A stretch of 63,191 nucleotides of DNA, counting the filler, from Hausera hauseri (Eukaryota): the NCBI GenBank assembly GCA_046269625.1. It is 13 parts of 13 records of this genome, joined end to end, with 100 filler letters (N's around TTAATTAATTAA, not from the genome) between each part and the next. Parts side by side here need not be neighbours in the genome. Positions count along the whole stretch, not along the records: positions 58,757 to 63,191 come from JBJURY010583223.1; 12 more parts are not named here. The stretch is one strand, 5' to 3'. Under the pieces are notes generated by a model. The model did not search any database, was not told the origin of the DNA, and was given only the letters and a program-made list of their open reading frames with translations. The position numbers and the translations under genes were made by a program. Shown here piece by piece: positions 533-63,191 of the stretch (its first letter is position 1; every line of letters starts with the position of its first letter).

Positions 533-559
533 CAATGGGTCATAAGTACTGGGTTTGTC

Positions 560-24105: not shown

Positions 24106-26490
24106 TGCCATTTTATTACGCATTATTTCGTAATTTAACTTACACTCGTTCATTATTATCTCACGATATAAACTTCTAATTTTTTTCCTTACGTAATTAA
24201 TCAAAAAGTCGATCTTGTTATCGAAATATTGCATCAACTTTACACCTTTCTTGTCGACTTTTGTTTTTTCGCCGGGTATTCTTTTTTTCGATAAGAAAAT
24301 ACCCTTATAATTAGTTTTTGAAGCTTCTTTATTACATTTAGTTGCTACTCCCGTGATCTTAAATCGCATCATGTCTTCCAGATTTTCTGAGTATACAAAT
24401 GTAGCTACTTCTGTCATCTTGACTTTCTTCGTTCCTTCTTTATACGTCGCTGCCTCTTTTTCCGTTGTTTTTCCAACCGTTTTACTAAATTTTCCTTTTT
24501 TCAACAACGTTAATTGACATTTATTTGCTATGGTTTCCCAAGTCATTTCAGACTCTCCAGTATCACATTCACCATTATCATATTCACATTCACTCATTGC
24601 CGTCATTACTTCTGTCTGTGAATCGAAGAGTACTTCATATTCTTTCAACTGAATCTGATAATCTTTGATGGCTACCGTTCTAGGGGCGATGGTACCTCCT
24701 ACGTCATAATCCACTCCTTTACACGTGCCTTCCATTGTTTTATCTATTCTTCCGGCCCTAAATATTCTAGTATATTTTATTCGATTTCGTATTGCCGGTA
24801 TATGTGCATTTTGTATCGTAATAATACCAATCTTAAAAGCATCCTGACACTCTGCTCGTGATATAATGATTGGTTTGAAAGGTGTAGTAGGCTCAATTAT
24901 AGCTGAATTTCCGGAATAGTAAGCACAATTAAACAGAAAGAAGGACCTCTTTACATAACATTCTCTGACCTTTGCTTTTATAAATTCCGACTCTTGATAT
25001 ACGAAGTACGTAAAACCACATGTCGTTGTTAGTTGTTCCGGATCAGCTTCTGGGCACTTCTCCAAATCTACCAAAGAGTACTTTTGACCTTCGCTAGGTT
25101 TAGAGCAATCATAAGCTATTATACCTACCGCTTTTGGCATAAGTAATGACGTTATTAATAGAATTTGAATAATCTCCATCATTGACATGCCTGTCGTACC
25201 TGCTCTAGTGGTACCTGGTTGTGTCGGAGCTGGCGTCTCTATTAACCTTTCTCGTTCTCCAGGCCTTATTACATTAGTCATCAGACTGCTTAGCCATCCA
25301 CCTCTACATTGAGCCCAATTGCCTAACGTATCTTTCAAAATTTTTACGGCTGTTCGTATATTCCGTTCTATTTCTTCTAAGTTTTGCGTTTGATGATTTA
25401 TTACTATTATTTTATATAACAGATACGATATCGCCGTTCGAGCTTTTTCGCGTGTAATTCCGGTTGCGAACATTTTTTCTAAAATATCCATCTCATGCAG
25501 TTCATTTATTCGTTCTTCCTCTAAGTTTTCATAGAATTGCCTACTTATTCGTAGCATATTATTATGTAACGTTGTGAATAGTTCATCTGGTATTATTGTC
25601 TGCATGTCAAATGAGGCGAATGACGTATGTAGTCTAGCCAATAATGTTCTTAATAATGGGTCTATGTCCACCGATTCAGGAGTACCATCTGTTCCTGCTA
25701 ATAATAATCGTCTTACTATTTCTTCATTTCTATCTTTTCTATTACGAATGTCACTTATTTTAGTTCCTTTCGGCCTACCTCTTCTCTTGGCTTCTGTTTG
25801 AACTGTGACATCTTGGGTATCACCCATAGGATTCTCTACTTCCTGTGGTTCTAGTTCCCTTAGGATATTTTCTACTGTTGCCTGAGCTCTTGCCTCTGGA
25901 TGTATTTCGGTTAACGTTATCGGATTGTAGTTCTCACTTCTACATCCAATTCTTAATAATTTATCGTAGTTATATAACGTCCTCCCATAATAACTTAATC
26001 CATAAGGACTTCCTTGATAGAAAGGTTCCAACTCCTCAATCTTTTCTCTTAAAGATTGTATATCGTCTACTTCATTCATCCTAATAACCCTCATGTCTTG
26101 GTTTCCTTCTCTTACTGTTATCCGTATAACTTCATTTCTTCCTTTCTCATCCTCGGCAGCTTTGGCTAATACCGTCCTGGCTATTTCTCTAACAGGACTG
26201 GTATCTTGAGCTAATAGCACCAATTGGCGTAGGATTTCATTCATCCTCTCTGGCGTTACTTTGTTAGTCAGTATCTTCAATATCGTAGTAGTCGTTTTAT
26301 CCACATCGATTATGTTATCGGGATCGACCGTCAACACTGCCTGGATGATATCTTCTTCTTCGTCTAAGTCTACACCTGGGTTCCTTATTACCTGGCCCAA
26401 TATAGCATCGTCAAATATTGGCGTGGCTTGGGTTTCTTCTGGATTGAATGAGGGTAAGGGTGTACTAAGGTTACTCTTCTTTCTTCCTCT
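24106..26490 (-). CDS. Retroelement polyprotein segment: ubiquitin-like domain, AT-hook, internal signal peptide, chuvirus-like glycoprotein (5' part; runs off contig)
   Basis: Open for more than 760 codons. UBL about 25906-26127, KRRGRPKG about 25765-25788, hydrophobic IIQILLITSLLMPKAVG, then IIAYDC..YSLVDLEKC, ECYVKRS..NC, GTCKG, ECKLNYEIMRNKMA. Confidence 0.8.
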
Positions 26491-27710
26491 TTTCTTTTTT
26501 TACTACCTCTTCCCTCTCTGTTAATGTTTCTCTTGATTCAACCTCTACATCAACTATTTTCCTATTGCCTCTCTTTCTTCCTTTTCGTGATCCCTGTTTC
26601 TCTGGTTGATTTTCTATCATATAGATACTACTTTCTTTTAGTCTTTGCTGCTGTCTTTTATACTCCTTTAATTCTATTTCTAATTGCTTTTTCGTGCGTT
26701 GGTACAACGTGTCGTTGATATAATTGACACTTTCTTTCTTTTTATTTTTTTTAGTCTCTTTTGCGCTAACGTTGTCATCCGTTTCGTATTCCATATCGGA
26801 GGATTCATTTGGCGTGGCCGATGTATAATATTTTTTCTGTTGTTTTTTCTTATTACTTGATCTCGAGGAATCTCCTTTGCGTGATCTACATGACTTGGCT
26901 ATATGTCCACATTTATTACAATTAAAACATTTCAGTCTTCCTTCGGAATCTATGTTAGGCAGTGATCTTCCATCCTTCTTAGATTTCTTCTTATAATTTG
27001 CCTTTTCCCCATCGTTTCGTAAATTAAACCTGACTTTCTTTTCCACATTTGACTCAGCTTCTGTGGCTGACGTTTGTGAGGAGCTTCTGTTTCTTTCATA
27101 ACGTTGATATCGTTGAGTACTATTGTTTCTTCTTTTATCATATCCATTGTTATTACTTTTAGACTTCTTCCACCCATACAGTTTTGCATCTCGTTTGTCT
27201 TTTCGCGCCTTTCTTATTGCTTCTTGGAACGTAGGCGGGTCTGTTTGTGAAATTATTGTCCTTAATCTTTCTTCTAGTCCGTATTGAAATTGGGCCAACA
27301 ATGCGTTATTCCGCATCGTAACATCCGGATATACTCTTGATGCGAGTTTTTCCAATGCACAGACAAAGTCCTAGACTGTTTCGTCTTTATATTGCCTTCT
27401 TCTTATAAATTCTTCGATTCTCCCCTTTCCAGGGGGATCTAGTAAAAACTTTTGAGGCAGTTTTTCTTTAATTCCTTTCCATTCCTTCTTGTCTTCGTCC
27501 AGCATCTGATATTAAATCATAAGAGCCGTCCCTTTTAGATAAAGTGGTAATCTTTTTAATCCTTTCTTGTCGTCCTCACCGAAGCTTTAGGAATATACTT
27601 CGTATTCCATCATGAAATCATGTATGTCTTCTTTGAACGAGAACTTTTTCATCGGTAGAGTGAAATCAGTCTTCGACTGAATCACCTGCTCTACGTTATG
27701 GTTTGCCATA
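26471..27710 (-). pseudogene. gag: Gypsy-type gag with CCHC zinc knuckle
   Basis: LPLYLKG.A, RRQ.KDETV.DF..ALEKLA...YP, QFQYGL, PPTFQEAI..A, CFNCNKCGHIAKSC; stops in the 5' part. Confidence 0.85.
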
Positions 27711-29149: not shown

Positions 29150-29706
29150 TATAAAATCTGAGGAGTGAAAGTAAGTAAGTAAAAAAATCCAGTGGAGAAT
29201 CAACGCCAAAGCTCACATAGCGACACAAGAGAACCTTTGGTCAAATTTTTTTTTTTGGTAAAGGGAAAGAAGATAATATTAAGGGAATTAATTATAATTT
29301 TAGTGAGTAATTTATTTTAGTTAAGATGCATGTTTGCCTAATAGCTTCCGTTTCAGTGTAGCAAGGCAAAGGCACAGATACAGTGATCTCGCCAGTAATC
29401 TAAGGCCTCTTATTAAATTATTATAAATAATAAAAAGGTGGGTCTTGAAGGCAGAGGCCAAGGTAAGTTCGTCGAATCAAACGACGTACGCCAAGCAGAA
29501 ATAATTAGTTAAAAGATAAGTCAAATCCAAGATTTCACGGAAATTTAAGAGTATGTATTGAGAAATTGAAGAGCGCACACTTTAGCGCCAAAATTTGAAT
29601 TATCAAAACCGCGATCACCCATTGTAACACATACGCAACACGTAGCGCACGACAAAGCAGGCACCTACATTTCATTTATCGTATTCATTTGCATGATCAT
29701 TGAAGA

Positions 29707-39392: not shown

Positions 39393-42300
39393 GAACGAAG
39401 ACGGTCGACAGAGAGTCGGCAGAAATGGGAATTTGGTTTGTTTTACTTGTGGCAAAGAAGGACACATTTCAAGGTCATGTCCAAATCCGCGTAGCGTTTC
39501 ATTTACCGAACCGAATAAGACTAGTATGATTAGAACCAATGAGAACCTAGAAGCAAAGTATGGTGTTCGTGGAGATACAGGTACTATCATCGATAAACAG
39601 GATTTGAGAAAATTCTTAGATGCTCAGCCAGACACTATGAACTTACAAATTTTGATAGCTAGAAGAGAATACGGAGATAAGTTGCGATTACTAGAAGTAT
39701 ATCACGGCTTAGCAGAACCAGAAACTGAATATGAATACGCAATAGCACCTAAACGAAGTGATATGACACGGAAAAAGTGTTCCGACGAGCAATAAGCCAT
39801 CTGATAAACCAGGCACATCGACGGCAATCGACTTAGACGCAAAGCCTGAGTTTACGGTTGAAAAAGTAGCTAAGCTTACTGAGGACGATGCAGCAGAAAA
39901 AGAATTTATGGAACCGTTAATACTTAAAATTACGAAGAATAGAGGCCGAAGCCTTTCATTAAAAACGAAACGTAGAAGTCGTTCACGCTCCAAAATAACC
40001 AGATTGAAAAAAAGGAAAACCCGAACGTCGGTCCGCACACCCCTGTCGGAGTAGCAGAATCCATAGAGTTAATTAACGAGATTAACGAGATTTACCCACT
40101 TCCTGCAACGAATACTGAGGATTTCGATCCCAAAAAGTGTAAAGTTCGACATTCGTGGAAAAACGCCAATGAATTAAGGAAATTGAGAAACAAACGTTAT
40201 GAGCCAGAAATATTACAGTGTGACTTAGAAAGGCTTAAACAAATTAGCGAACAAGTAGATATATCCGGGAAAGAGCAGCAATACGCTGAGAAGTTATATA
40301 AAAGTTTGAAACTGCGTAATGAAGGAAAGTTTGCTTAAGCAATTGACTTAGAACAACCCGAAGAGGTATCAACCGAAACGTTGTTAAAATGGAAGCAGGA
40401 ACTAGAATCATGGATTAAAAGCGGAATAGAATTTTTAGAAAGGTGGAATAAAAATAAAGACAGAGTCGACGTAAAAATCACTAAAGCTCAGGCATTACTG
40501 TCCACTTTAGAAGCAAACCCGAAATTTAAGAGAGCAGCTCGCAGTTTGGAACGTATGATGGATGGAATTCGCCTTGTAATGATTCACCGGCTCATAGAAA
40601 AACAGGTCAGCAATCGAAATAATAGCGACTTAGAAATATTGGGTATAGACCTAGTAGATATTCCTCCCTTAATGGAGATGATTAAACTCACGTTTGCCGT
40701 ACCTAGACGGTATACAAATTTAGAGGATCGTATTGGAATAGAAAATGAAATATGAGCACAGATTTATAATTTGAGAAATGGAATTATGTTCCCAAACAAC
40801 GAGGATACTCAATATACAGTAAAGGCTTGTATAGTAGAATTGGACGAGTACAAGGATGAGTTTAGTTATGTCGGGCGAGTTATGAATTTTCTAAGAGGAC
40901 CAGACGATGAGTTAGAAGATGCCTATAAGATGCTAGATAAAGCCATAATGGCGAAACCTGTAATAGCAAATCAACTGTCACAATGGTCCGAATTAATAAC
41001 GCGATTAAGCAAATTGGTAGAAGATCGCAAAACAAAATTTCCGCAAAGTGAGCCAACGGTAAAGAAACAACTAGAAGAAAGTGCGCACGACCTAGGCACG
41101 ATGCGAATAGGAATAGACATCCGTACTCAATTCGAAGCGCTACGACGACTAAAATTTATGGAAAAGGAACGAGAAGCACTGATGATGGAGGAAATCTACA
41201 GACTGATCGAAGAAACGAACTTTACTGAAAAACGGAACATGATTCACGATGTGAACTCAAAGTTAAAGATTATTCGACTCGAAGGATTACAATACTTAAC
41301 AAGAAAACCAATCGACGAAATTTCCGCACAAGACATTGAAATCATGGTCATTCGTCCAGGGCATCGAGAGACGTTAACGGACGCAATAAAGTTTTTGCAC
41401 AAACTCAAGAATGAATGGCCGGGTCAGACCAGAATTTTCATACCATGTTGATAGAAATAGGAAACGACCCACATTTTAGTTTTCAGGAACACAAGTTCGT
41501 AAAGAAATTATTGGATGCAATGGACCCTGATTCAAAGGTTATAAATGAGCTGTATGAGTTAGCCTATTTATTGGTGGAAATGGCGGAAATCAGTGATGAG
41601 TAGATGAAACAATTGATGCCCAAGATACAGAAAGTAGAAGAAACATGTATCAAGACGAAATAAAGGGCAACAAAGTTGGAGGAAATAACCAAAGAGCTCG
41701 AAGTCTATCGAAACAAATATGCTTTTACCGAATCAGAGATTAAGAATAAAGGAGAATTTGTACAAAGATATCAAAAAGATGTGATTCTTGAATTGACAGA
41801 TTATCACCTGAAAGGGCTGGTTGGCCCGAACGAATTGGGCGAATTACTGGAAATGATTCAGTATGCCTGTGGAAATGGAGTAGGTTTCCGAACTACGCAA
41901 ATGAAAGAAATACAACCTAGATTAAGGGAAATTCGGGGAAACATTCAAAGAGCCAATACGGCTTTATTGGACTACCGACTCCCGTATGTCGGAAACGAAC
42001 ACGAATGGGATGCATACTTTGACGAAATACTTGCTGGAAAACCTGACTCCAGTACAGCTAAACGAAATAGAAACATGTCCGCGAGACAGGAGATTCAATG
42101 TGGAGATGTTACCAGATTCAGCGCTAACTGAAAAGGATTTGATTGAATTCATTAACATAAATATTACTGAGAATAAATTACGGCAACTTATTCCAACGTT
42201 AATTAAATTATCTAGCGAAAACACGATTTACAGTACGGTGCCGAAACTTTTGATAAGAAAGTACGCTAAAATCTTGAGTGCTAAACCTGCGGTGACGATA

Positions 42301-43230
42301 AAGGTAATGGTGTCATCCGAATGGATGGACGAAAACGAATGCGAGTTGATTACATATTCCTACATAAAGGACATAAGAGAATGGCTAGTAAACAGTGGTG
42401 GAACGAACGAGTTAAACTACAGATTTTATTATAGAGGTAGAATACTCGATGACCTAGAACAACTAATAGACGTCGAGATTATTCCTGACGAAACAAATAG
42501 GATAGTGGTAGTAGCTAACGAACAAACAAAAGAAGAAGCTACACGTAAAACCAAAACAGAACAATGCGTAGGACAAATCATGGGAGTTCGAGACGCCGCA
42601 CTGCATTTCGAGTATTTACAAACGGACGAAGATAAAGAACAATACGACATAAATTTAGTACCAGTAAGTGAAACAACCACTAAGGGTCCAAGACCGAAAC
42701 GCCCAGTAGGCAGACCTAGAAAAATGCGAGAAGAAGTAGATTACAACGGAGAATTAATTAGAGAATTGAGACAGATGTCGATTCCGACTCTTGGCCCAGA
42801 TAACGAGGAATTAAGCGAGTTAATGAAAAATTTAATACGAATTGTGAATTATTCTAGTTTTCGAGATGTGTTAGATGATAAAGAAAAGATAATTTTCGAT
42901 GCAGCCAAAATGATGAGAAGTTTACGTTTCAAGCTGTCAAAAAGTAACTTAACCGACAAGTCAGTAATAGAAAAGATCATGGTAGAAAACACGAATGAAG
43001 AATTGGGAAAGGTATTGCTATACTTAGCTATAAAAATAAATACTAATCGAGAGAATGAGATCAATAGGGCTATAAGCTTAGCACGGAGAGCAGCAAGAAG
43101 AATACCTTGCCAAGTAAATTGGGCATGGCTATTTGGCAAGGAAGAAGAAAAACGAAATAACAATAAACTAGACGAGATGTTGCGTAGCCTGACAATGTCA
43201 GACGTCGAAGGTCGGAAAAATGAATCGAAT
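39393..43230 (+). pseudogene. Retroelement Gag zinc knuckle plus long accessory region with ubiquitin-like domain and AT-hook (decayed)
   Basis: CFTCGKEGHISRSC at 39439. About 2.8 kb of broken helical coding sequence follows, then a UBL at about 42292-42519 (YRFYYRGRILDDLEQLIDVEI) and PKRPVGRPRK at about 42690-42723, in frame with the glycoprotein signal. Confidence 0.75.
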
Positions 43231-44517
43231 TGGCTAATTAGCTTGCTTACCTTAATGATGCTAATAAAGCATATAAGCGCGGTAACCGTCTACGATTGCG
43301 ATAAGTTTAAATTAGGACAGAGATATTCCTTAATGGACCTGGAAGTATGCGAGGACGCCAGACCGCGCAAATTGGAAACGAGAGAGAAAAGTTACTTCCT
43401 GTATCAACAAGAAGAATTGATATCGTTAGACGGAATGGAGTGCATGTTGAGACGATCGCGTAGTATCTTCCACTGTCGACTAATACACGGACATTCTTCC
43501 ATAATTAAGCCAACTACTCCGCTAATTCCAATGAATTTAGAACGCCAACACTGAAAACAAGCTAAAGAGAATGGAAGAGTACAATGGGACAGTATGCAAT
43601 TAGAAATGCAATCCGGAAAGATAATCGGAGCATACAAAGTAGTAGCTGGAAGGCTGGATATGCATACCGGACATTCTAATGGAGCACAATACGATACAGG
43701 AAAAGGATTAGAATCAAACATAGTAGTTATGGATTTCTACGAATCAGAAATGCGATCACAAAAGGTAATGTTCCATAGTGTCACTAAGTTATATACTGAG
43801 AATCAGAAATGCCATTTACAAGACGGAATTTGTGCTTTTAGAAGCTCGGTTATAGTATGGAAACCTCCTTCTGGAAGAAATTGTAATTTTATTAAAATTA
43901 AAGAACTAAAGTTCAATGAAACTACAGGGAAGAGATATGTGGACAAATCGGAAACTAACTCAAGGACACATAAGGATGTATCAGAACACTCTACACATAC
44001 TATATTAATTTCGGATCAGCATGGATTGAAATTTATTAAAAAAGAAATGATGTCCCGCTGTGATTTAGTGATGTTTGCTACGAAATATGAAGCGTTTTTC
44101 GTCGCAGAAACGGAAATAAGTGCGAAAATTTATAAACTAGAAACGCAGGATGTCCACATTGAAGATTACCTGAAAAATAGAGGTGATTACTTCTACTATA
44201 AAGGACAAGTCGGAATAACGAAATTATATCACAAAATGATAAAGAATGACTGCAAATTGGATACATAAATCATGAGAACTAAAATGGCTCTTATATATGC
44301 AAACCCAGAATTAGCTTCACCAATAATTCCCATGAGAGAAGGAATTTTTGGTGGGTAACAGGCGAAGTACTGCTAACTTTTGAGTGTGAAAAGAGACATG
44401 TACCCATCAACGTGGAAGAAAAATGTTGCATTCAGGAACTTCCTGTTATTTACCAAAATATTCCGAGATTAGGTACACCTCTGACGAGAGTGTTACTGAA
44501 TAACGCTAGCCTACCGA
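43231..44517 (+). pseudogene. Chuvirus-like glycoprotein, 5' two-thirds
   Basis: WLISLLTLMMLIKHISA|VTVYDC..YSLMDLEVC, ECMLRRS..FHC..HGHSSII, CKLD..IMRTKMALIYANP, GEVLLTFEC, CIQELPV, TRVL. Confidence 0.8.
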
Positions 44518-44634
44518 NNNNNNNNNNNNNNNNNNNNNNNNNNNNNNNNNNNNNNNNNNNNTTAATTAATTAANNNNNNNNNNNNNNNNNNNNNNNNNNN
44601 NNNNNNNNNNNNNNNNNCGGAACTTTCGGATATT

Positions 44635-47600
44635 TTGCAAATCGATAAACAATGTTTATATATTGATTCAGGTGCAAGTTGTCATCTTCTTTCTGATGAG
44701 AATTTATTTACAGAATTAAAGTATGAACATTCGCCAGCAAAAATAATTCTCGCAAATGGAAAGACTCTAATTTCGAAAGCAATTGGCTATGCCGACCTTG
44801 ATTTGAAATGCGAATACGGTTTGCAAAAGATCACGTTAACCGATGTTTATTTCGTTCCAGACTTACGGTGCAATTTAATTTCAGTTAAAAAGATCACTGA
44901 TAAAGGATATTCCGTTCTTTTCGAAAAGGAAAATTGTTTCGTGAAAAAGAATGATGAAATAATTATGCACGCACGTTCCGATAAAGGCAGTTTATATAAA
45001 ATCAATCTGATCAAACAAGCAGAAAGCGCTAACATTGCGACTGAGTGCAAAAATAAAAATTGCATACAAATGTGGCACTCAAGACTCGGTCATCGGAGTT
45101 ACGATGCAATTAAACAGATCGTTCGCGAAGACCTTGCCGACGGAATAACATTAGATAATTGTGAACATAATAGTAATTGTTCAGAATGCATTAAAAACAA
45201 AATGCAACAAATTCCGTATCCAAAGGTAGCTAGTGTTCGTGCGACCAAACCACTTGAACTTATACATAGCGACATCTGTGGGCCTATGCCAACCCCGAGT
45301 GTTAGCGGAAAGCTATATTTCGTCACATTTATCGATGATTATACCAGGTACACCGTCATCTATTTACTTGCTAAAAAGAACGAAGTCTTTAGTAAATTGA
45401 AAGACTTTATCGGTATAACAAAAAATAAGTTCGGAAGAACTATACAAACACTCCGAACCGATAACGGAGGCGAATACACCAGCAATGAAATCGAAGAATT
45501 TTTATCGAGCAACGGCATCAAACATCAGCTGACTGTACCTTTCTCACCCCCTCAGAATGGTGTAAGTGAAAGAAAAAATAGAAGTCTCACTGAAATGACT
45601 AGATGCCTGCTTTCTGAGAGCCGACTACCGAACAAATTATGGGGCGAAGCTGTACACACCGCAAATTACATTCAGAACCGCCTGCCTACGAAAGCTTGTG
45701 AAAGAACTCCCTACGAATTATGGAGTGGAAGAAAACCTAACCTAGCTCACATGAAACAATTCGGTTGCACAGCCTATGCATTCGTTCACAAAGAAAACAG
45801 AAGAAAATTAGACCAGAAAGCGATAGAAGGGATTTTTGTCGGCTACGACCAACGATCAAAGGGATACAGAATCTATACAACCGAAAACCGTATAATCGTC
45901 AGTAGAAGCGTAAAATTCATTGAAGAACTGTCGACAAACGAAAATGTTGTAATCCCTCATCCAAGAGCAGAAGATGATGTAAGTAATGACAAAACCGAAA
46001 GGGAATCAGAAGTCAATTCAGAAGAGCTCAGACGATCAGAAAGAAAAAATAAAGGAATACCTCCCGAGCGCTTTGGATTCATGGCAGATATTGCCGAATA
46101 TACTCCTCAGAATTTCAAGGACCTGGATAATTTAGATCCCAGAGAAAAGGAAAAATGGTTACTCGCTGTTAACGAAGAAATCACTTCCTTGTCGAAAAAC
46201 CATACATGGAACTTAGTTGATCTTCCTGATGGAAAGAAACCTATCGGATGCAGATGGACCTTTAAGCTAAAAAAGAATGAAGACGGCACAGTGACTCGCC
46301 ATAAGGCAAGACTAGTCGCAAAAGGCTATAGTCAGAAATTTGGAACCGACTATGATCATACCTTTGCACCAGTAGTTAGACATACAACTATTAGAACCTT
46401 TTTCGCTGCAGCAGCTTACGATAAAATGCACGTCGCACATGCTGATGTTACCACTGCTTTTCTACACGGTAATCTTGAAGAAGAAATATATATGGAACAG
46501 CCGGAAGGCACAATCCAAGCAGGACAAGAACAAAAGGTGTGCAAATTAAACAAATCTCTTTACGGTCTAAAGGAAGCCACTAGAATATGGAATAAAAGAA
46601 TTGAAGAAATCCTAAAGAACAACGGTTTTTCACAAAGTACTGCAGATCCATGCTTATTCATGAAAAAGGATGGAACAGATACAATAATGGTTACTATTTA
46701 CATTGACGACATCCTTATAGCATGTAAAAGGCTCAATAAGATCGATATGTTAATCAAAACCTTCAACAAATTCTTTGAAGTAAAGAACTTAGGAGAAGTT
46801 ACAAATTACCTCGGAATCCATATCAAAAGGAATAACGGAAAATTCTTACTGAACCAAGTATCAAAAATTCATGAGTTAAAGAAAAAGTTCTGCCTGAATA
46901 TGAATAAACAGTCCTACACACCAATGGACACTGCCTATCCAAAAAACCAAGACACCCAACAACTGACTGATAACACAAAATATAGACAAATCATCGGAGG
47001 ATTGCTATATATAGCAACCGTAACAAGACCAGACATCAGTTTTGCAGTGAACCTGTTGAGCAGGAAAAATGAATCTCCAAGTGAAGAAGATTTGAAGGCA
47101 GCTTTAAGAGTCGTAGAATACCTGAATTCAACGAAGGACTTTTACCTCCAAATAGACTCTGACAGCCCTCCTATACTCACTTGCTATACAGATGCTGACT
47201 ATGCATCAGACTTGGCAACTCGCCGGTCAACCGGAGGAAACCTGTTTTTCCTCGGGAACAACCCAATTTTGTGGTCCACAAAAAGGCAAAATTGTGTTTC
47301 CCTATCCTCAACAGAGTCCGAGCTCATTTCAGCAGCCACAGCCGCTCAAGAGTTCAAATGGTTATTAGATTTTCTAAAAGATTTTGGACTATTCCAAAAA
47401 TTACCCATACAAATGTTCGAAGACAATAAGTCCACCATATCCTTAATCCAAAATGGAAAAATGAATACTAGGCTAAAGCATATCAATGTTAAGTATTTCT
47501 TTTTAAGGGAAATGGAAGAAAATAAAATAATTAAGATGACATACTGCAATACAAGTTCCATGATTGCAAACATTTTTACCAAGCCCTTATCCAGACCAAA

Positions 47601-47658
47601 ATTTATTGAAATAAGGGACAAATTAAGTCTAATTTCTTTTCCCGAAATACATGATTAA
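44635..47658 (+). CDS. pol: Copia/Ty1 Pol (PR-IN-RT-RH), 5' end cut by contig edge
   Basis: IDSGAS, WHSRLGH, HSDICGP, RTDNGGEY, QNGVSERKNR, KARLVAKGYSQ, YIDD, YTDADYA, SSTESE. The last RNase H Asp reads N (IANIFTK). Confidence 0.97.
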   Translation: MQIDKQCLYIDSGASCHLLSDENLFTELKYEHSPAKIILANGKTLISKAIGYADLDLKCEYGLQKITLTDVYFVPDLRCNLISVKKITDKGYSVLFEKENCFVKKNDEIIMHARSDKGSLYKINLIKQAESANIATECKNKNCIQMWHSRLGHRSYDAIKQIVREDLADGITLDNCEHNSNCSECIKNKMQQIPYPKVASVRATKPLELIHSDICGPMPTPSVSGKLYFVTFIDDYTRYTVIYLLAKKNEVFSKLKDFIGITKNKFGRTIQTLRTDNGGEYTSNEIEEFLSSNGIKHQLTVPFSPPQNGVSERKNRSLTEMTRCLLSESRLPNKLWGEAVHTANYIQNRLPTKACERTPYELWSGRKPNLAHMKQFGCTAYAFVHKENRRKLDQKAIEGIFVGYDQRSKGYRIYTTENRIIVSRSVKFIEELSTNENVVIPHPRAEDDVSNDKTERESEVNSEELRRSERKNKGIPPERFGFMADIAEYTPQNFKDLDNLDPREKEKWLLAVNEEITSLSKNHTWNLVDLPDGKKPIGCRWTFKLKKNEDGTVTRHKARLVAKGYSQKFGTDYDHTFAPVVRHTTIRTFFAAAAYDKMHVAHADVTTAFLHGNLEEEIYMEQPEGTIQAGQEQKVCKLNKSLYGLKEATRIWNKRIEEILKNNGFSQSTADPCLFMKKDGTDTIMVTIYIDDILIACKRLNKIDMLIKTFNKFFEVKNLGEVTNYLGIHIKRNNGKFLLNQVSKIHELKKKFCLNMNKQSYTPMDTAYPKNQDTQQLTDNTKYRQIIGGLLYIATVTRPDISFAVNLLSRKNESPSEEDLKAALRVVEYLNSTKDFYLQIDSDSPPILTCYTDADYASDLATRRSTGGNLFFLGNNPILWSTKRQNCVSLSSTESELISAATAAQEFKWLLDFLKDFGLFQKLPIQMFEDNKSTISLIQNGKMNTRLKHINVKYFFLREMEENKIIKMTYCNTSSMIANIFTKPLSRPKFIEIRDKLSLISFPEIHD

Positions 47659-47667
47659 AGGGGGGAA

Positions 47668-47920
47668 TGTTGTAAACTAATCATGACTTTCGGCAAAAAC
47701 CCTACTCATAACTGGACTTTCACATTTGTCTTGTAACCCCATAAAAGCCGCCAAGGCGCGCGCCAAAACGTCCCGTGATGTATTATTATTCATTCCCTGT
47801 TTTTGTTCTTCTATGTACGCCACGTCTCTTGTGTTCTTTGTGATGTATCGTCTAAGCTTACGAACAACTTAAATAAAATTCGTCTTATGGAATTACTCCA
47901 TTATTTTAGTCTTTCCAACA
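47668..47920 (+). repeat. Copia LTR (253 bp)
   Basis: Preceded by PPT AAAGGGGGGAA; TGTTG...CAACA termini; AATAAA near 47872. Confidence 0.88.
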
Positions 47921-48095
47921 CAAGTCTACACGTATCCTGATAAGGAGATTCTCCGTGTGATAGAGAGGTAAGTGTGTTTTTACTACCTACTCTTTCAATG
48001 ATTATGAGACTGAACGGAAGTCTCTAAATCACGTTACTCTCTAGACTGTGTTTGTGAAGTTGTTAAAAACTGTTCCACAAAGAAAAACTTTAAAT

Positions 48096-49127
48096 ATGGC
48101 TCAATCAGTTACTAAAGATACAATAACAAAACTGAACTCCGAGAACTATGCGACCTGGAAGTTCAAGATCCAAATGCTACTAATGTGCGATGGACTAGAC
48201 GATATTATTAACTCTCCCCCACCGGAGAATCCTGATGAAGCATTTCTAAAAAAGGACAAACAAACGCGAGCTATCATAAATCTGTGTATAGATGATTCTC
48301 AAATCATACACGTTAGAAACGAAACTACCGCTGCCGGAACTTGGCAAAAGTTAAAATCTGTACATGAGCGTTCCAATTTAAGCAGCAAATTATATTTGTT
48401 AAGAAAATTGTATTCAATCAAAATGCCGATACATGGGAATATGGTAGAACATATTACGCACATGATGGATCTAGTCGAAAAACTAAAGGCTATCGGTGAG
48501 AATATTCCCGACCAACATGTAGCTGCACTCCTACTAGTGTCAATCCCAGAATCTTACAATAATTTAATCACTGCTCTAGAAGCAAGAGATGAGAGCCTCA
48601 TAACTACGGACCTAGTTAAAGCGAAATTAGTCGACGAATACAATAGAAGGTCAGAACAACAAGCTGATAGAAATTCTAATACTTCGACAGCTTTTAAATC
48701 TGCATTAAATGCAAGAAATTTTAATAATAAGAAAGCAGAGAAATTTTGCAGCTTTTGTAAGCGCAACGGACATACTCGAGATCGCTGTTTTAAATTACAA
48801 AATAAAAACAATGTTTATCCCAATAATGCGAAATCAGAAGAACGCGTGACCAAATATGGCGGCAAATCGGACCGATATTGCATGACCGCAAAAAGTTTTA
48901 ACTCGAGCGTCAGCCAGATTTCTTTGGCGCCAGATGGGAAAAATATTTACACTAAAGGATTAATTATAACGCCGGAACTTTCGGATATTTTGCAAATCGA
49001 TAAACAATGTTTGTACATTGATTCAGGTGCAAGTTGTCATCTTCTTTCTGATGAGAATTTATTCACAGAATTAAAATATGAACATTCACCAGCAAAAGTA
49101 ATCCTCGCAAATGGAAAGATTTTATTT
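48096..49127 (+). CDS. gag: Copia Gag plus start of protease (second, tandem copy; partial)
   Basis: KLNSENYATWKFKI, W.KLKSVHE, LLVSIPESY, CSFCKRNGHTRDRC, then the same LQIDKQCLYIDSGASCH as at 44635. Confidence 0.93.
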
Positions 49128-49227: not shown

Positions 49228-50285
49228 TTTTGTTCGGGGTTGCTGGGAATCCATTCGTGTTCCCACTTTAATCCAGCATTTATATCCCTTAGATATTAGG
49301 ATCTTTGATTAGCGGTCAACACCCTGCTTATTTTTATATTTCCTCCGGTCATGGCCTTTACCATTAACTTAAAACGGCCTCTCACGGTGGTTGGTAGATG
49401 ACCCTTCTTCTCTTCAACCTTAATTCCCATTTGTCTCATAACTGTCGGGTGGGTTTCTATCTCTCTCACTCCGGCTATATGCGTTACCTGTATGGCTAAT
49501 TTCTTTATCATCCTCTCTACTTGATACCCCACTAAGATGTATCCATAGAGGCATTGTGCTACTTCTTGTTGCACTAATTTGGAATCCTTTCCATGATTTA
49601 ATTGCTCTCTTTTAATACCGGTAACTTTTGCATAAGTTTCTAGCACTTTCTTTCTCGGGTTAATGATTTTCAAATAAACCTCTGTCCCGTTTTCTTCTCG
49701 GATGGATATTTCGATCGGAATATAATTTCCCTCTTCTCCTTCCCCCTAGTTTATTGCGACAATCCTGAGATTCCTTTCATCGGCTACCAATCTAAATGAA
49801 TGTAGATGTGCGTCCTGTTCTTCTTCCTTGGGCCTTTGTCTGAACTCTAAGGGCGGCAATGAGACGGTTATTATCTCCTCTTCAGTAGTCTCGATCATCA
49901 TCTTTACAGGTAAGGCGGCCACACGAAATTCCAGTTCTTAGTTATGGAAATTTCTTCTGTCAAATATGAATGTGCTGAAATAGCTTTGCCTTCCTTGGAA
50001 AGAGTCCCATTTTTGATCTTTCAATCGATAATAAATTTCTCCGTCGGCCAGGTGTACATATATCTTCTGTTCTTTATCCGTTTGATACTGAGTGATCTGT
50101 TTGAAGGGGTATGCCTTAGCATCCTTGTCTTCCCTCCATGCGTACAAGTATACCGCTCTGGCCTCCTCGATTGTACCTTTTAACCCATTTGGTATCTCGC
50201 CAACTTTCCCATACTGAACGAAGCTCTTTCCTTGTAACTCCGTATTGATTTGCCTATAGATGGCCTTTGAATTCGGGATCCGCAC
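49228..50285 (-). pseudogene. Accessory ORF ending in a degenerate REX4/ISG20-like DEDDh exonuclease-fold domain
   Basis: ORFs 49938-50285 and 49296-49673 share one frame with two stops. IVAIN*..IEISIREENGTEVYLKIINPRKKVLETYAKVTGIKREQLNHG..VQQEVAQCLYGYILVGY follows the REX4-type pattern, but catalytic acidic residues are not evident. Confidence 0.55.
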
Positions 50286-50331
50286 TGTTACATATCGCTG
50301 TAAAATTCGTCGATACTAAGTCGACTTGTGT

Positions 50332-52083: not shown

Positions 52084-54182
52084 TCATAAGGATCTTCTAC
52101 GTTTATTGTTTTCCGTCTGATATGAACTCATAGATCGTTTGTCACAATCTTCATAGAATGGAGAGGTAGGAGGTAACATGGGCAATGGTGCTTTAACGAC
52201 AGAGTACATCTTATGTCTATTTAATCCTGAAAGTACTTCTCCTCCCTTAGGCTCGTCATCATCTGAATTATTTCTTCGTAAATTGGGTTTTGAAAATTTC
52301 TGATTCCTGAAGAATATGGGTCTTTCTTTTCGTTTACCACTATAATAGCCGACATGGTGTTCTACGTCCGATTTCCATCTATTTTCTGCGTATGCTTTTA
52401 AGAATTTTCCAAAGGGTGTTATGATTGCCGTCAATGCCTTACATAAAAATCCAGTCAATATAAATAGTTCATTGCCATTTATTACCTCTTGGATGACTGC
52501 TTTAATCATGTGTATCAAGAAGTGTATCGCTAAAAATCCGGATGCAGCTTGTCCGAATATCAGAAAATTTCCCCACATTTTGTAAAGTATTTTGTTTGCT
52601 ACTCTCTGATGATGATTCACATCGAGTAAAGATTCCCATTTAGCTTGATATCGGGTGTCGTCTACTACAGACGCCATGGCTCGATTTAGCTCATGTGTTC
52701 GTTGTCGTGGAAAGGCAAGGAATTATCTGAAAGCCTCAATTTCCCTCGGTCTATATATGCCTTTTAAGGAAGTGTTTTAAAATTTATTGTCTGTAATTCT
52801 TTTTGCGAGATTTGTTCCTGTTAATTTATTTGGAGCGGCAATAATACATCCATTTGGCAAGCTGACCCAGTCTGTCTCACTACGTCTAAACCTAGGTTCT
52901 CCTAAGTTTGCCTTGCAATTTTTAAGGATGGTTGATTGGGTAGCATTATCCAGTAACACTCTCGTCAGCAGTGTAGCTAACCTCGGAATATTTTGGCAGA
53001 TAACAGGAAGTTCCTGGATGCAATGTTTTTCTTCTACGCTCATGGGTACATCTCTCTTTTCACATTCATAAGTTAGCAATACTTCGCCTGTAACCCTACC
53101 AAAAATTCCTTCTCTGATGGGAATTATTGGAGAAGCTAATTCTGGATTTGCTTATATCAGAGACATTTTAGTTCTCATGATTTCTGTATCCAATTTGCAG
53201 TCATTCATTATCATTTTGTGACATAATTCTGTTATTCCAACTTGTCCTTTATAATAGAAGTAATCATCTCTATTTTTCAAGTAATCTTCGATGCGGACAT
53301 CCTATGTTTCTAACTTTTACGTTTTCGCACTTATCTGCGTTTCTGCGATGAAAAAGGCTTCACAGTTTGTAGCGAACATCACTACATCGCATCGAGAGAT
53401 CATCTCTTTTTTAATAAACTTCAACCCATGTTGATCCGAAATTAATATAGTAGGTGTAGCGTGTACTGATACATCTTCACGTGTCCTCGAATTGGTTTCT
53501 GACTTGTCCACATATCGTTTTCCTGTAGTCTCATTGAACTTTAGTTTTTTAATTTTAATAAAATTAAAATTTCTACCAGGAAGGAGGTTCCAATATTATA
53601 ACCGAACTTCTAAAAGCACAGGTTCCATCTTGTAAATGACATTTCTGATTTTCAGTGTATAATTTAGTGACACTGAGGAACATTACCTTCTGTAATCGCA
53701 TTTCTGATTCGTAGAAATCCACAACCACCACGTTTGATTCTAAACTTCTTCCGGTGTCGTATTCGGCTCCATTACAATGTCCACTATGCATATCTAGTCT
53801 TCCGGCTACTACTTTGTATGCCCTGATTATTTTCTCTGGCTGCATCTCCAATTGCATACTGTCCTATTATATTCTCCCAGTTTCCTTTGCTTGCTTGCAG
53901 TGTTGACGTTCTAAGTTCACTGGGCTGTTGGTTTGATTATAAATGAGTGTCCATGAACCAACCCACAGTGAAAAATGCTACGTGATCATCTCAACATGCA
54001 TTCCATTCCATCTAGCGATATCAACTCTTGTTGCTGATACAGGAAATAATTTTTTTCTTTTGTCTTTAATTTGTGTGGTCTAGCATCTTCGCATACTTCC
54101 AGATCCACTAAGGAATATCTCTGTCCTAGCTTAAACTTATCACAGTCGTAGACAGTTACAGCGCCTATGTGCTTAATTATCA
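52084..54182 (-). pseudogene. Chuvirus-like glycoprotein, nearly complete, with TM and cytoplasmic tail
   Basis: AVTVYDCDKFKLGQRYSLVDLEVC through CIQELPV, TRVL, GIY, MWGNFLIFGQAASGFLAIHFLIHMI; same family as 43231-44517. Confidence 0.82.
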
Positions 54183-54282: not shown

Positions 54283-56300
54283 TTAATGCACGGACATTCG
54301 TCAATAATCACACCAACTATCCCTCCAATTTCGATGAACTTAGAATGCCAGCACTGCAAACAGGCTAAGGAGACTGGAAGAGTACAATGGGACAGTATGG
54401 AATTTGAAATGCAATCAGGAAAGATAATTATGGCATATAAGGTAGTGGTCGGAAGGTTAGACATGCATAACGGACATTGTAATGGGGCGGAATACGACAC
54501 CGGAAAAGGATTACAAGCAAACGTAGTGGTCGGGGATTTCTATGAATCAGAGATGGGAGCACAAAAAGTGATTTTCCATAGTGTCACCAAATTATATACC
54601 GAGAATCAAAAACGTCATTTAAAAGACGGAACCTGTACTTTTAAAAGTTCTGTTATAATATAAAAACTTCTCTTCTAGACGAAACTGTAATTTTATCAAA
54701 ATTAACGAATTGAAGTTTAATGAAACTACAGGAAAGTGATATGTGGATAAATCTATTACCAACTCAAGGACACGCAAAGACGTATCAGAACATCCTACAC
54801 CCACTATATTAATCTCTAATCAGCATGGACTAAAATTTATTAAGAAAGAAATGATTTCTCGTTGTGAAATAGTGATGCTCGCTACTAACTATGAGGCGTT
54901 TTTCGTCTCCGAGACAAAAATAAATGAGAAGACTTACAAGTTAGAAACGCAAAATATTTGAATTGAGAATTATCTAAAAAACAGAGACGATTATTTCTAT
55001 TACAAAGGGCAAGTCGGTATAACCGAGTTATGACATAAAATGAGAACAAATGAATGTAAATTGGATATGGAAATCATGAGGACAAAACTGGCTCTTATTT
55101 ACGCTAATCCCGAGTTAGCATCCCCAATAATTCCTATGAGAGAAGGAATTTTTGGACGATTTACTGATGAAATCTTACTGACTCATGAATGTGAGAAAAG
55201 AGACGTACCAATCAATGTAGAAAAAAACGATGTATACAGGAACTTCCCGTTATTTATCAGAACACTCCACGATTAGCCATGCCGTTTACTAGGGTATTGT
55301 TAGATAACGCGACTCAGCCAACGATCCTTAAAGACTGTAAGGCAAGCTTAGGAGAACCAATGTTTAGACTTAGGGAAACAGATTGGAATAGTATGCCAAA
55401 TGAGGTATTACTGCCGTTCCGAATAAATTACCGGGGACAAATTTCGCGAAAGGGATTACCGACGACTAATTCCAAGATACCTCTCAAAAGGGTATATATA
55501 GGCCCAAAGAGACTGAAGCCTTCAGGCAATTCCTCGCCTTCCCACAACAACGGACACATGAATTAAATCAAGCCATGGCATCAGTAGTAGAAGATACTCG
55601 CTATCAGGCTAAATGAGAATCCCTGATCGAAGTAAACCATTACCAACGGGTAACTACAGAAATACTCTAAAAAATTTTGGGAAGGTTTTTGATTTTTGGA
55701 CAAGCCACATTTGGATTTTTAGCGATATATTTCTTGATTCAATTAATTAATGCAGTCATTCAAGCGGTAATAAACGGATATGAAATATTTACATTGACTG
55801 GATTTTCATGCAAAATTTTAACGACAGTTATAACACCATTCGAAAAGTTTTTTAAGGCCTACGAAGAAAACAGATGGAAATTAGACGTAGAACGCCATGT
55901 CGGATATCATAATCGTAAAGGAAAAGGAAAACCGATGTTCTTGTACAAGCGGAAATTCAAGAAATCTAATATACGGAGAAATAATTCAGATGTCGACGAG
56001 CCTTATGGAGGAGAAGTACCTTCGAGAACAAATTGGCATAATGCGTATTCCATTATCAAAGCACCGTTGCTTATGCTACCCCCTACTGCTCCAGAAGATT
56101 GTAATAAGCGTTCAATGATCTCATATCAGATAGAAGTATATAAGAGGACAATTAGCTTGGGGGACCCATATGAAGGGAAAAAACGGTATGGAATTTTGCT
56201 GAAAATGTGCTATCGACCGCCGATGGATGATCCTACAATCTTGTACTCTCCACGGGAACCCCGAAACATAGAAACGAGACCACCTGTCTGGGAAAATTGA
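54283..56300 (+). pseudogene. Chuvirus-like glycoprotein with TM and tail
   Basis: HGHSSII, GHCNG, CKLDMEIMRTKLALIYANP, FLIFGQATFGFLAIYFLIQLI. The tail is in frame with the protease ORF at 56418. Confidence 0.82.
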
Positions 56301-58756: not shown

Positions 58757-59486
58757 TCTTGGTTCACGGGTAGTTTGCAACAGGGGTTTTGCGCACCTGC
58801 GCGAATAGAACAATATTCTATTTTCGGGGTTTGTCCACTTGCTGCTTTGAATGTGATGCTAATTTCTCGGTTGACAGTTAACTCTGTTTTGGCATCTACT
58901 TGGATGAATTGTTTTTGCTTGTTTATAGAGATTCTCCAAATATTTTCGTCTAATAGTCTCACATCCGGGTCAGTATATCGCAGCAATTCATTGGGTTTTA
59001 CTCCATGATGTCTGTTTCATGCAAGAATAACTAACTGAAATTGTGGTTTTACTTCAATATAAACTTCGGTTGAGTCTGGTAAGTATAGGCGATAGGCAAG
59101 ATTATAAGTACGCCCAAAATCTATGTCGCAACACTGCGTATTTTCTCCAGGCTCAAAATCAAAATTTTCGCTTCTTTTGTTATTACATCATATAAACCAA
59201 TTTGAAATCTTCCAAAATCGTGGTGCGGTTTCCAAGTCTTAAATCCAACACATACGGCGTTTGGTGAATAATAATGAATCGTCATTGATTGCAATAGTTT
59301 AGCACCTTCTTGTCTTCGGATATCTTCGACTGTTGGTTTCTTTTCCGTTTTAATCGGTTCCGATTTTGATTCGCTCTTCCGAATTCCGTATATATCTCCT
59401 AACGTAGGCTCATCGTGCCGCCATTGGGCTTGTGTTCTCGGAATATAAGAAGCAATTAGCGATAATGCTAAGACTATCTGAACGTA
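58757..59486 (-). pseudogene. Post-integrase ORF with signal-peptide-like start and CC motifs
   Basis: In the integrase frame, after KRYNLR..RPI*, comes YVQIVLALSLIASYIPRTQAQW. After a frameshift: GENTQCCDIDF and EYCSIRAGAQNPCCKLP; runs off the contig. Confidence 0.5.
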
Positions 59487-62400
59487 CTAGATCGGTCTGG
59501 CAATTATTGACGAAGTTTTTACCTCGCATTGGCGTAAATTATAACGCTTGTTTGGCCGTATTTCTGTCTTGACAACTCTTTGTACTGACACAACTTCTTC
59601 CTTTTCATTTTTGTTAATATACACTGTGGTCGGCGTGACTTTGGTAACTTCGTATGGTCCTCTGCCTGTGCGAGTTAATTTTATTGAGGTGCCTTTCTTG
59701 GCTAGTGGGTAATTGCATAGACCCAATTTTCTTGTTCTATATCATGCGGTTTCGCTTTCTTATCATATTGCTTTTTAAACTGCTCTTGATATTCTTAAGA
59801 TAATTTTTTGGCAATTTCCCAGCATTTTTGTAATCGCGTTTGTAATACTTCTGCGAAATTTTGTTCTAAATCTTCGGGATTGACTGTGAATGGCGTCATT
59901 CCTAAGTCCGTGGGCAACACGGCTTCGCGTCCATACATCATGAAAAATGGAGTGAATTTTGTTGCTGGATGTGGTGTGGTATTAATAGTAAACTGAGTCT
60001 CTTCCAAAAATTCGTCCCAATCTTTCTGGTCCTTTGCTACTACTGTCAATAATATACGTATAATGGTTGCATTCATTCGTTCCACCATTCCATTACATTG
60101 AGGATGATACGCAATAGTCGTTAATCGTTCGATTTCAAATATTTTAGTGATTTTTTCAAATAATTCACTTGTAAAATTTCTTCCTCGATCTGTGAGTATC
60201 TTGTCTGGGGGTTCGTATCGGCAAATAATCCTTCTTACTACGGCTTCTGCTAAAGTTTCTGCCTTTTGATCAATTAACGATATCAACTCGACGAAATGAG
60301 TTAGTCGATCAATACACATCAAAATATATTTATTGTTCCTGTGAGTAGTAGGAAGAGGTCCTACGAGGTCCATCGACATGGCTTGCATGGGCCTGTAGGG
60401 TACATCAATTACTTTTAGTTCGGCCATGTAATTTTTCGTCTTCTTTTGTTTAGTTGCACATACGTCACAAGCATTCACCCAATTTTTCGCATCAATATAG
60501 ATACTAGGCCAGAAATATTTATTCATTATTCTTTCTAACGTTTTCTTCCAGGACATGCGCCATGCCAAATATGAATCGTGTTCTGACATCAGTACTTCTG
60601 TTCGAAAACCTTTTGGAATAACTGTCAGTTTCATTCATTTCCGTTCGTAATATAAAATATCTTCATTGCTCTTGTCACTTAGGACGCAATATTTATGTCC
60701 GTGTCTGTGTAAATGTTTCTTTAACTGTCGTCCCTTCGGTATGACATCCTTTTTAGCAAATTTTATAATCTGCTGGATGACCTTATCCTTCCTTTGTTCT
60801 GTTGAAATTTTAATTGCTTTATCCATTGTCAAGGCGCGTTGCCGATCTACTATCTCTTCGAGTTGGCTTTTCTTCATTACAGTAATCGCACTCGTTTTAG
60901 TCTTCAATCTTGATAGTGCGTCCGCGTCTACATGTTTATTTCCCGGCGTATACTGGAATTCAATATTGTATCTTGATATTTCTTCGATCCATCTGTTAAG
61001 CCTGCATGTCGGGTTATTTGCTCGGACTTTTAAGGTTGTAACGGCCTTGTGATTAGTGACAATTATAATTTTCTGACGGTATACGTAAACGTTGAAATGA
61101 TGCAGTGCTTCTTTTACGGCTAGAGTTCCCAGTTCTGTAACCGAACAGTTTTTCTCGGCCTTCTTCAAAGAACGTCCTGCATAAGCAATTGGGTGTTTTA
61201 ATTTTTTGTCTTCTCTTTTCTGCGCTAATTTATAACCAATGCCTTCCTTACTGGCGTCTGTCTTGATTATAAAAGGTAGTTAAAATCTGGATATCGCAAA
61301 ATGGGTTCACTTGTTAATATTTTCTTCATCTCATCAAAAGCTTTCTGTTTGACGTCTGTTCATTTCCATTTAATTCCTTTCTTAAGTAAGCGATATGAGG
61401 GTGCATTAATTTTTGAATTATCCGGTATGTAAGTTGCATAATATCAGCATAATCCTAGCCAGTGTTTTAATTCCTTTTGGTTTTGTGGTTTCATGCAATC
61501 GGATATTTTGTTCAATAACGATTTATCTGGTTTTGATCCTCCTTCCCCAACTATATGACCTAGGTAGGATACGGCGTTTTGGGCCCATTTGCATTTCTTT
61601 GGATTTAATTTCAATCCGGCGTGTTCTAGTCTCCTTAGCGTATGTTCCATATCTTTAAGTGTTTCTCTTCTGTCCTCGATGCTATCATCACATTGTCTAA
61701 GTACGCAAAAGCATGATCCAATCCCATTAACATTTTTTTCATCATTCTTGTAAATATGGCTTGTCAGGTAGTAATACCGAACGACATGATATTAAATTCA
61801 TAAACGCCATCATGAGTTTCGAGTGCCGTTTTATATCGGTCGTTGTCCTCTATCTTTACTTGCCAATATCCGAATTGTAAGTCTAGAGTGATAAACCATT
61901 TCGCTCCTGAGAGTCGGTCTAATGCCTCTTTGACCGACGGTAGTGGGAAAGAATCATTCATCATAAGATTATTTAAGGCTCTGTAATTAATACAAAATCG
62001 ATGTTTCGTGGTACCTTTCTTCTTAACCATGAGGATTGGTGAATACCAAGATCTATAGCTAGGCCTGATTATGTCTGCCTTAAGCATTCTTTCGACTTCT
62101 TTCGTTATTTCGGGCCTTAATGAATGCGGCGGAGGGTACGATTTCGGCATCTTCTGGTCTTGCAAATCTATTTCCTCGTTTGACCCTGGCTTTTTCTTGA
62201 GTGGAATAGTTAGTTTTAATGCTTTCGTTCTACCGATATCTTCTTTTTCCTTATCAATAATCGATTTATATCGGCATAACAATTCGTAGAATCGACAATA
62301 AGACTCAGGTGAAAATTTAGTTTCGACATGAGGTGGATATTCGGCATACTTGTAAGGTTTTTCTTCGATAGTTATTGACGATACTATATATGTGTCTCCT

Positions 62401-63191
62401 AAAGTAGTATAAGCATGGAGCTTGACGGGAATTTGCGCGTTATTAGCTATTCTGACTGGTACTCAACCGGAGTGCACTCTTGTTAATACGTTGCTGAGTA
62501 ATATATTCGGATCTAACGTATCTCTTGGTTCAAAATATACTGGTTGATCGTCAACTTGCTGTACCTGGACACAAATTATTATTTCTGTTCTTGGCGGAAT
62601 GTTTTCGTCAAATGGTATCCACACTTCTCCAAATTTTCTATCCTTAGCATTTTTCACGCCTTTATTGGGCCTGATTTCTATTAATTTTCCTGTTTGTAAG
62701 TTGATTGCTATATTCGGTAGCCTTTTCAGTAGATCACATCCTAGAACGACGTTATCCGTTAATTGTTCCATAATTCGAATTCATAATAAAATGTTTGCCC
62801 AACTATTTGGACTTCTGGGTTCCATTTAAACATTAATTTCGACATTTGGCCAAAAGCTCCTCTACCTGCTGCGTCTTTTGCAGATGGAGGATATAATTTT
62901 CCTCTTAGAGTTTGTGGTATTGAATTATTTTTAATGTAAGACATTTCCGATCCTGTATCGATTAAGGCATAAACTTCCCAATCTTCAATAATGATTTTGG
63001 CGAAGAGTCTCCCTTCTATTACTGTTCCGAAACAGTTCGGTGTATCCTTTGAGCGTCCATTAATTCGGATTTCGGGAGAGGCTACTATATTCTCCGATAA
63101 TTGTCTTAATTCTTCATTTGGGTATAATTCATTGTTTTCTATGTGTACTTCTTTTGCTTCATGTGTACTGATTAATGGTTCTCGATTATTG
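59487..63191 (-). pseudogene. pol: Gypsy Pol (PR-RT-RH-IN with GPY/F motif), decayed; same family as 50332-52010
   Basis: LIDTGSE, RFCINYRALN, KTDASKEGIG, ELGTLAV, HVDADALSR, CDVC, MDLVGPLP, TDRGRNF, NGMVERMN, GPYEV. Near-identical in DNA to 50.3-51.9 kb, including the pre-protease linker. Confidence 0.95.

Follow-up and report, generated by a model that had tools for sequence, protein, structure and literature searches.

Among the closest described systems is the planarian element Burro (GYPSM1), in which, according to the available text of PMC6431247, a Gag with a CCHC knuckle, ubiquitin-like and Bcl-2-like modules, and a mononegavirus-type env lie in frame ahead of protease, reverse transcriptase, RNase H, and integrase (PR-RT-RH-IN). 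The same text reports accessory ORFs and a wealth of host-regulating domains. A comparable order is found in the GAG-ENV-POL errantiviruses of nematodes, bryozoans, and flatworms, whose ENV is of the HSV/gB type (PMC13524379, main text). How such gB-type elements enter cells is left unexplained, since herpes gB requires partner glycoproteins, a link made in the Discussion of that paper. In the accessible part of its supplement, six of six Schmidtea rows have no LTR called in the 3-kb flanks searched, which may fit long unannotated flanks, with long LTRs as an alternative cause. LTR elements of bdelloid rotifers carry a captured, non-env ORF3 after integrase and, in the available text of PMC5408684, some of these have membrane helices and others are DEDDy exonucleases. 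Within the covered parts of these sources, the gag-env-pol layout and the presence of non-env ORFs after integrase (the latter in rotifers, PMC5408684) are each already known.

Here we analyze 63,191 nucleotides of Hausera hauseri DNA (GCA_046269625.1; hereafter the window), which contain a broken gene directly behind the integrase of a Ty3/gypsy copy. We propose that its product may be a membrane protein with fibronectin type III-like (FN3-like) domains that serves the fusogen of the same element family as an attachment partner.

Results

A broken gene behind integrase

The window comprises 13 unrelated contigs of 4.2–6.2 kb each, artificially joined by 12 linkers of the form N44-TTAATTAATTAA-N44, and most of the contigs contain pieces of eukaryotic transposons. 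The gene of interest occupies the left edge of the final contig (S13, JBJURY010583223.1, 58757-63191). Because the sequence stops at 58757, at a linker joining unrelated contigs, the gene is truncated by the assembly; the signal, repeat 1, and the larger part of repeat 2 fall inside the window, and the remainder is predicted from an intact relative, P0004 (Table 1). The rest of S13 is a decayed pol, assigned to Ty3/gypsy (Metaviridae) by its PR-RT-RH-IN order, H2C2/rve integrase, and GPY/F motif. Over the integrase piece, identity to the best Pol relatives does not exceed 41%. Its roughly 960 codons are interrupted by about six stops, not counting two of the eight listed that sit at frame-change edges, and by three changes of frame.

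Table 1. Coordinates of the gene behind integrase, the pol of the same copy, and related copies in the window
Feature	Position	Strand	Evidence or remark
Artificial contig linker	58657..58756	.	gene has no continuation to the left of the linker
Post-integrase gene, broken, truncated at contig end	58759..59529	-	corresponds to about residues 1-249 of the 479-aa P0004
Repeat 1 second half and most of repeat 2, FN3-like beta-sandwiches (predicted)	58759..59148	-	P0004 alignment, models
Frame break within repeat 1	59149..59162	-	P0004 matches end at 59163 and resume at 59148 in different frames
Charged linker and repeat 1 first half	59163..59420	-	alignment to P0004
Signal-peptide-like stretch, including TAG 59489-59487	59421..59504	-	hydropathy; best conserved part relative to P0004
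Probable gene start: ATG, non-integrase frame, nine codons	59503..59529	-	three identities to P0004 residues 1-9
Integrase, broken: H2C2 zinc domain, rve core, GPY 59660-59652, KRYNLR 59549-59532	59532..60634	-
Protease, spacer, reverse transcriptase, RNase H, same copy, broken	60635..63191	-
Monjiviricetes-type fusion glycoprotein directly before protease, S11	52087..54182	-	PF24664 E 1.5e-12, 1.3e-4
Same glycoprotein before protease, S12	54335..55850	+	PF24664 E 3.1e-9, 4.9e-4
Family 5' part, S9: zinc knuckle, long linker, glycoprotein from about 43237	39393..44511	+
More distant family, S6, same layout: zinc knuckle, glycoprotein from about 25182	24106..27370	-

An initial annotation, made from the sequence alone, had proposed a secreted or membrane protein encoded in the usual env position. 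The gene does lie directly behind integrase on the minus strand, and P0004, its intact relative, has a signal peptide and one membrane helix. The landmarks given earlier are likewise present on the minus strand: a TAG in the integrase frame after KRYNLR, a signal-like stretch (YVQIVLALSLIASYIPRTQA, followed by QW) from 59486, and downstream one frameshift and one stop, the latter a TGA at 59019-59017. This TGA lies between two similar Cys clusters, found as CC pairs at about 59133-59128 (repeat 1) and 58782-58777 (repeat 2). The TAG had been taken for a decayed TGG, to be checked on another copy. P0004 does have a sense codon at this position and reads through it, with a residue other than the one guessed.

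Stops are rare in the two coding frames (one in 109 and one in 130 codons, or 2 in 239), while each of the four alternative frames has 5–11 over the same region. Base composition predicts 16.5 stops in 244 codons, so that two or fewer would occur with a probability of ~1e-5, a value to be read with the post hoc choice of frames in mind. P0004 matches both frames in order (tblastn E 4.6e-39). The region behind integrase is confirmed as a real but broken gene, beyond what chance would produce. Neither a polypurine tract nor an LTR was found within it.

An alternative genetic code was considered and rejected. Since stops of all three types (TAG, TGA, TAA) act as breaks, and ORFs of 1691 and 1030 codons in the window are intact under the standard code, the standard code was kept.

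An intact relative with the features of a type I membrane protein

P0004 was found by a phmmer search of 1.84 billion representatives (cut-off E≤1e-3), with the second frame, stops masked as X, as query. It is the sole usable match of two (479 aa, E 4e-20) and a single-member entry from a 4939-nt contig; the other, P0005, was dropped as a repetitive protein matched over only 16 residues. Identity is 33% over 129 residues of the second frame and 42% over 117 residues of the first, which was absent from the query. The two sequences are colinear across both frames, and no intron-sized gap separates their parts. Searches for further relatives recovered only P0004 itself among 3340 near-length and 386 shorter candidates, and two GTDB scans gave 84 and 43 pattern matches, none of which was confirmed as a relative.

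By hydropathy and pattern, P0004 has the signal, C-terminal helix, and sequons of a type I membrane glycoprotein. Only two segments are hydrophobic (residues about 14-31 and 424-455), and the second leaves a tail of 27 residues that carries a single YxxI motif. Repeats 1 (about 72-165) and 2 (about 178-285) are related and share a C..C..CC pattern; their alignment score of 76 was reached by none of 1000 shuffles. They are followed by a linker that is 44% Ser/Thr and by a third repeat that is weakly related (its score was reached by 37 of 1000 shuffles). The third repeat, membrane helix, and tail are observed only in P0004. As to the second glycoprotein of the initial annotation, P0004 has four sequons, and the part of the gene within the window has none.

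Structural comparison points to FN3-like domains

We modeled full-length P0004 (pLDDT 46) and its two repeats (pLDDT 53), both with low confidence. With the two-repeat model, Foldseek returned 23 PDB matches at E≤1e-3, with TM-scores of about 0.3; 20 of the 21 listed matches are fibronectin, Robo, integrin beta4, or cytokine-receptor chains, which we take to be FN3 structures. In VIA-align this model came closest to fibronectin, with 141 positions aligned at rmsd 4.8 and Z 8.2. Single domains gave Z 6–7.4 at about 3 Å, bacterial Ig-like sandwiches among them, and a Z under 8 can arise from a shared sandwich fold alone. The full-length model had no Foldseek match at E≤1e-3 and a best Z of 6.5, and a viral structure library yielded generic sandwich proteins only (best E 3e-4). 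The Atlas search returned FN3 membrane proteins at 0.83–0.87, under the 0.9 mark, and serves as a lead only. By sequence, there was no match to Pfam fn3 or to solved FN3 domains in the PDB, and searches of Pfam, PHROGs, and PDB sequences gave nothing useful.

Set against the definition of an FN3 domain, a seven-stranded beta-sandwich of about 90 residues, the evidence amounts to Z values of 6–8.2 on low-confidence models. Because these weak models match FN3 structures and sequence methods do not, we regard a beta-sandwich repeat as likely and FN3-like as the best reading of the predicted fold, supported but not firm. The module was probably captured long ago from a host surface protein. The structure prediction and Foldseek comparison suggested in the initial annotation thus favor an FN3-like fold, within the confidence of the models, and give no sign of a fusogen.

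This bears on the idea that the gene is the true env, a second fusogen in the usual position. Its place after integrase, its signal peptide, and its single membrane helix are what such a protein would have. P0004, however, contains no internal hydrophobic fusion peptide, no furin-type site (RxK/RR), and no Pfam fusogen match, and no fusion protein appears in the descriptions of its listed structural matches; we consider a second fusogen extremely improbable and retain the FN3-like reading.

A fusogen precedes protease in the same family

Contig S11 shares 88% identity with S13, and contig S12 shares 78.5%. In both S11 and S12, a PF24664 fusion glycoprotein stands before protease, as had been reported for the family at the outset. 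A class III-type fusogen is found between gag and protease in this family, to which S13, whose sequence begins downstream of that position, is linked by its 78.5–88% identity to S11 and S12. The linker regions of S9 and S6 align at 26% identity; that of S9 has a weak ubiquitin-like match (about 42361-42492, E 0.11) and that of S6 a weak Bcl-2-like match (about 25294-25563, E 0.0033), each below the Pfam cut-off.

Several further features of these contigs were noted. The region between knuckle and fusogen contains GRP-type basic motifs (39393-43236, plus strand; 25182-27370, minus strand), and the S9 linker, about 1,200 codons long, is mostly free of Pfam matches. A fragment of another Monjiviricetes-type glycoprotein lies in S1 (358-1041, plus strand, E 1.5e-19); it has no DNA match to the other copies, and no pol match was found behind it. 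In S11, reverse transcriptase gives way abruptly to an A-rich, roughly 350-codon frame on the same strand (49228-50320, minus strand) with a weak DEDDh exonuclease match (PF00929, E 0.007–0.03). This frame may be a downstream cargo ORF moved to reverse transcriptase by an internal deletion, in the manner of the rotifer elements, or an unrelated insertion.

The gene as part of the element

The post-integrase region of the family is covered by one contig of the 13, S13. There the gene adjoins integrase on the same strand, and no repeat, poly-A, purine tract, or element end lies between them. Its 3–4 breaks per about 250 codons compare with about 9 per 960 in pol (binomial P 0.5–0.75, a weak test). 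An ATG at 59529, within the integrase tail in another frame, opens nine codons whose likeness to the start of P0004 is equaled by 129 of 123,306 windows, a comparison chosen post hoc. This N-terminal likeness suggests that the ORF is distinct from pol while overlapping its end, that one more break directly precedes the signal, and that P0004 has a homologous stretch upstream. The AT skew, 0.18 in the gene and 0.21 in a host-like gene, leaves A-richness without power to discriminate between element and host.

Taken from one copy, the position of the gene, its matching decay, and the weak N-terminal clue make it quite likely that the gene belongs to the element. A less likely account, though one we give some weight, is that it is no regular part of the family and represents either a processed copy of a host gene or a fragment from some other mobile element, P0004 then being a host or unrelated protein. 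The single copy in the window would fit such a passenger, as would the 4.9-kb contig of P0004, which could be a transcript, and S11 offers a precedent in which a family copy is joined abruptly to other coding DNA. Yet the junction in S13 is on one strand and has neither gap nor element end, the gene has decayed at the rate of pol, and the likeness to P0004 at the N-terminus falls in a frame that overlaps pol. For a conserved host receptor, moreover, one would presumably expect further relatives among the 1.84 billion representatives.

If the gene belongs to the element, it could also continue the polyprotein at its C-terminus, with translation passing through the TAG position and signal peptidase freeing the product, as for the upstream fusogen. 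In S13 the signal-like stretch is indeed in frame with the integrase tail, in S6 and S9 the linker and the upstream fusogen share one frame, and P0009, from an unrelated gypsy Pol, runs in frame into a hydrophobic tail. P0004, by contrast, was called as a protein of its own whose first residues resemble a frame of the window other than that of integrase, and the Pol relatives P0006 and P0009 carry an RYxLR- or RYPRR-like motif at the end of the integrase tail. An extension of Pol seems improbable to us; from the reading frames, the gene is probably a separate ORF that overlaps the end of pol. Among Pol relatives, none of 120 has a tail resembling P0004, and a hydrophobic tail is present in 2 of the 89 that have GPY/F. 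The P0009 fragment has an in-frame signal-like stretch and a membrane helix after integrase, dissimilar to P0004, and is possibly an independent case of a membrane protein in this position.

Other elements in the window

The window also contains an intact gypsy gag-pol element of 1691 codons without env (29704-34779, plus strand), preceded by four 62-nt repeats (28892-29164). An intact copia-type element (44618-49127, plus strand) lies on a contig that begins in pol and ends with gag; its 155-nt terminal overlap, at 94% identity, probably reflects a collapsed or circular assembly. An open frame of more than 940 codons at 12338-15173 (plus strand) is coiled-coil-like and has internal repeats of 105 to 315 nt. 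Two copies of a decayed element (5000-8235 and 16219-19456) are 77% identical over 3.3 kb; by eye they resemble a Polinton-type DNA polymerase region, and the one piece scanned had no Pfam match.

Discussion

We propose that the gene behind integrase serves a Burro-like Ty3/gypsy element of gag-env-pol layout as an accessory gene, an intron-free ORF that would start within the last codons of pol. Its product, as modeled on P0004, would be a type I membrane protein in which the signal peptide is followed by a pair of FN3-like domains bearing Cys, then a Ser/Thr linker and one more FN3-like domain, and lastly a membrane helix with a tail of 27 residues. Expressed from a subgenomic message, the protein would reach the cell surface or the particle membrane and present its FN3-like domains on a stalk, where adhesion to a neighboring or target cell, or to matrix, could allow the upstream class III-type fusogen to act. 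We place the probability of this whole explanation at roughly 0.4. The initial annotation had read the locus as a two-glycoprotein system of a fusogen and an attachment or accessory protein; the fusogen and the membrane protein gene both stand, and the second product is refined to a putative FN3-like type I protein.

Granted that the gene belongs to the element, we give adhesion that lets the fusogen act about an even chance. Host-cell modulation is nearly as likely as attachment. Here the product would act on the host as a receptor-like decoy, or as a modulator that damps signaling or immune recognition or blocks superinfection; taken by itself, we hold this to be doubtful. The many cytokine-receptor ectodomains among the best structural matches are consistent with such a role, as are the short tail with its YxxI motif, the weak matches elsewhere in the family to Bcl-2-like (E 0.0033) and ubiquitin-like modules (E 0.11), and the host-regulating domains that fill Burro in the available description (PMC6431247). 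The tandem-FN3 matches, however, are not specific to cytokine receptors, with fibronectin and Robo scoring alike, and there is no sequence likeness to any named receptor. We keep attachment as our preferred reading at the strength given above.

A more general proposal, that Burro-like elements use a two-protein entry machine made of a class III-type fusogen within the polyprotein and a host-derived FN3 attachment ORF after integrase, is at present tentative and, in our estimate, rather unlikely. Against any such partner role, attachment by this gene included, the PF24664 family places the fusogen alongside the G proteins of mononegaviruses; since many of those engage receptors on their own, the fusogen may need no partner.

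In the text of the open full-text papers searched, we met no Ty3/gypsy element that combines a fusogen with a further surface protein of FN3 type. The gene is a candidate to seek downstream of pol in published elements, a region that PMC13524379, in its available parts, did not annotate as coding. Should it prove to be a standard component of the element, it would be a candidate for how such elements attach to cells, and if the two-protein reading of entry is true, also for the partner still missing for the envelopes of gB-type retrotransposons. Acting on the host instead, it would bring a mimic of a surface receptor into Burro-like cargo.

Features that mark Burro are a ubiquitin/SUMO-like and then a Bcl-2-like module before env, a dUTPase-like region between protease and reverse transcriptase, BIR, ankyrin, and MATH domains, two or three knuckles, a single polyprotein of about 5000 aa, a length of >25 kb, and a planarian host. 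In our family the ubiquitin-like and Bcl-2-like matches before env come in the order given in the covered text on Burro; they are sub-threshold and come from two different contigs. The scanned pieces, from partial and broken contigs, have no BIR, ankyrin, or MATH match, and one knuckle was seen in each such contig. Between protease and reverse transcriptase lies a spacer of about 150 codons, with no dUTPase match in its two in-frame pieces and a third piece out of frame. The text of PMC6431247, its figure aside, mentions neither FN3 nor a second membrane ORF in Burro, and the available text of PMC8532177 and PMC13238120 has nothing on Burro ORF layout. We refer to the family as Burro-like rather than Burro. 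Troyka, as described in the available part of PMC12440569, was judged not relevant.

The likeness to the GAG-ENV-POL errantiviruses lies in ORF order and fusogen class, and those elements differ in having only gag, env, and pol annotated in the covered parts of PMC13524379, whose main text contains no occurrence of 'fibronectin', 'immunoglobulin', 'attachment', 'accessory', or 'Burro'. The rotifer ORF3 shows, in the available text of PMC5408684, that an env-like position need not mean env; a fusogen ahead of pol is lacking there, the ORF3s with membrane helices measure 210–230 aa, and 'fibronectin' does not occur in that text.

Animal FN3 surface proteins (fibronectin, Robo, class I/II cytokine receptors, FNDC5/FNDC9) resemble P0004 in combining a tandem beta-sandwich ectodomain with a single membrane helix. 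P0004 differs from them in the absence of a sequence match, in its own C..C..CC pattern, and in what is probably a location within a retroelement. In paramyxoviruses, F works with a separate attachment protein. No homology was found to that pair or to herpesvirus gB with gD and gH/gL (PMC13524379), and the likeness of our locus to both is an analogy confined to the proposed division of labor between a fusogen and an attachment protein.
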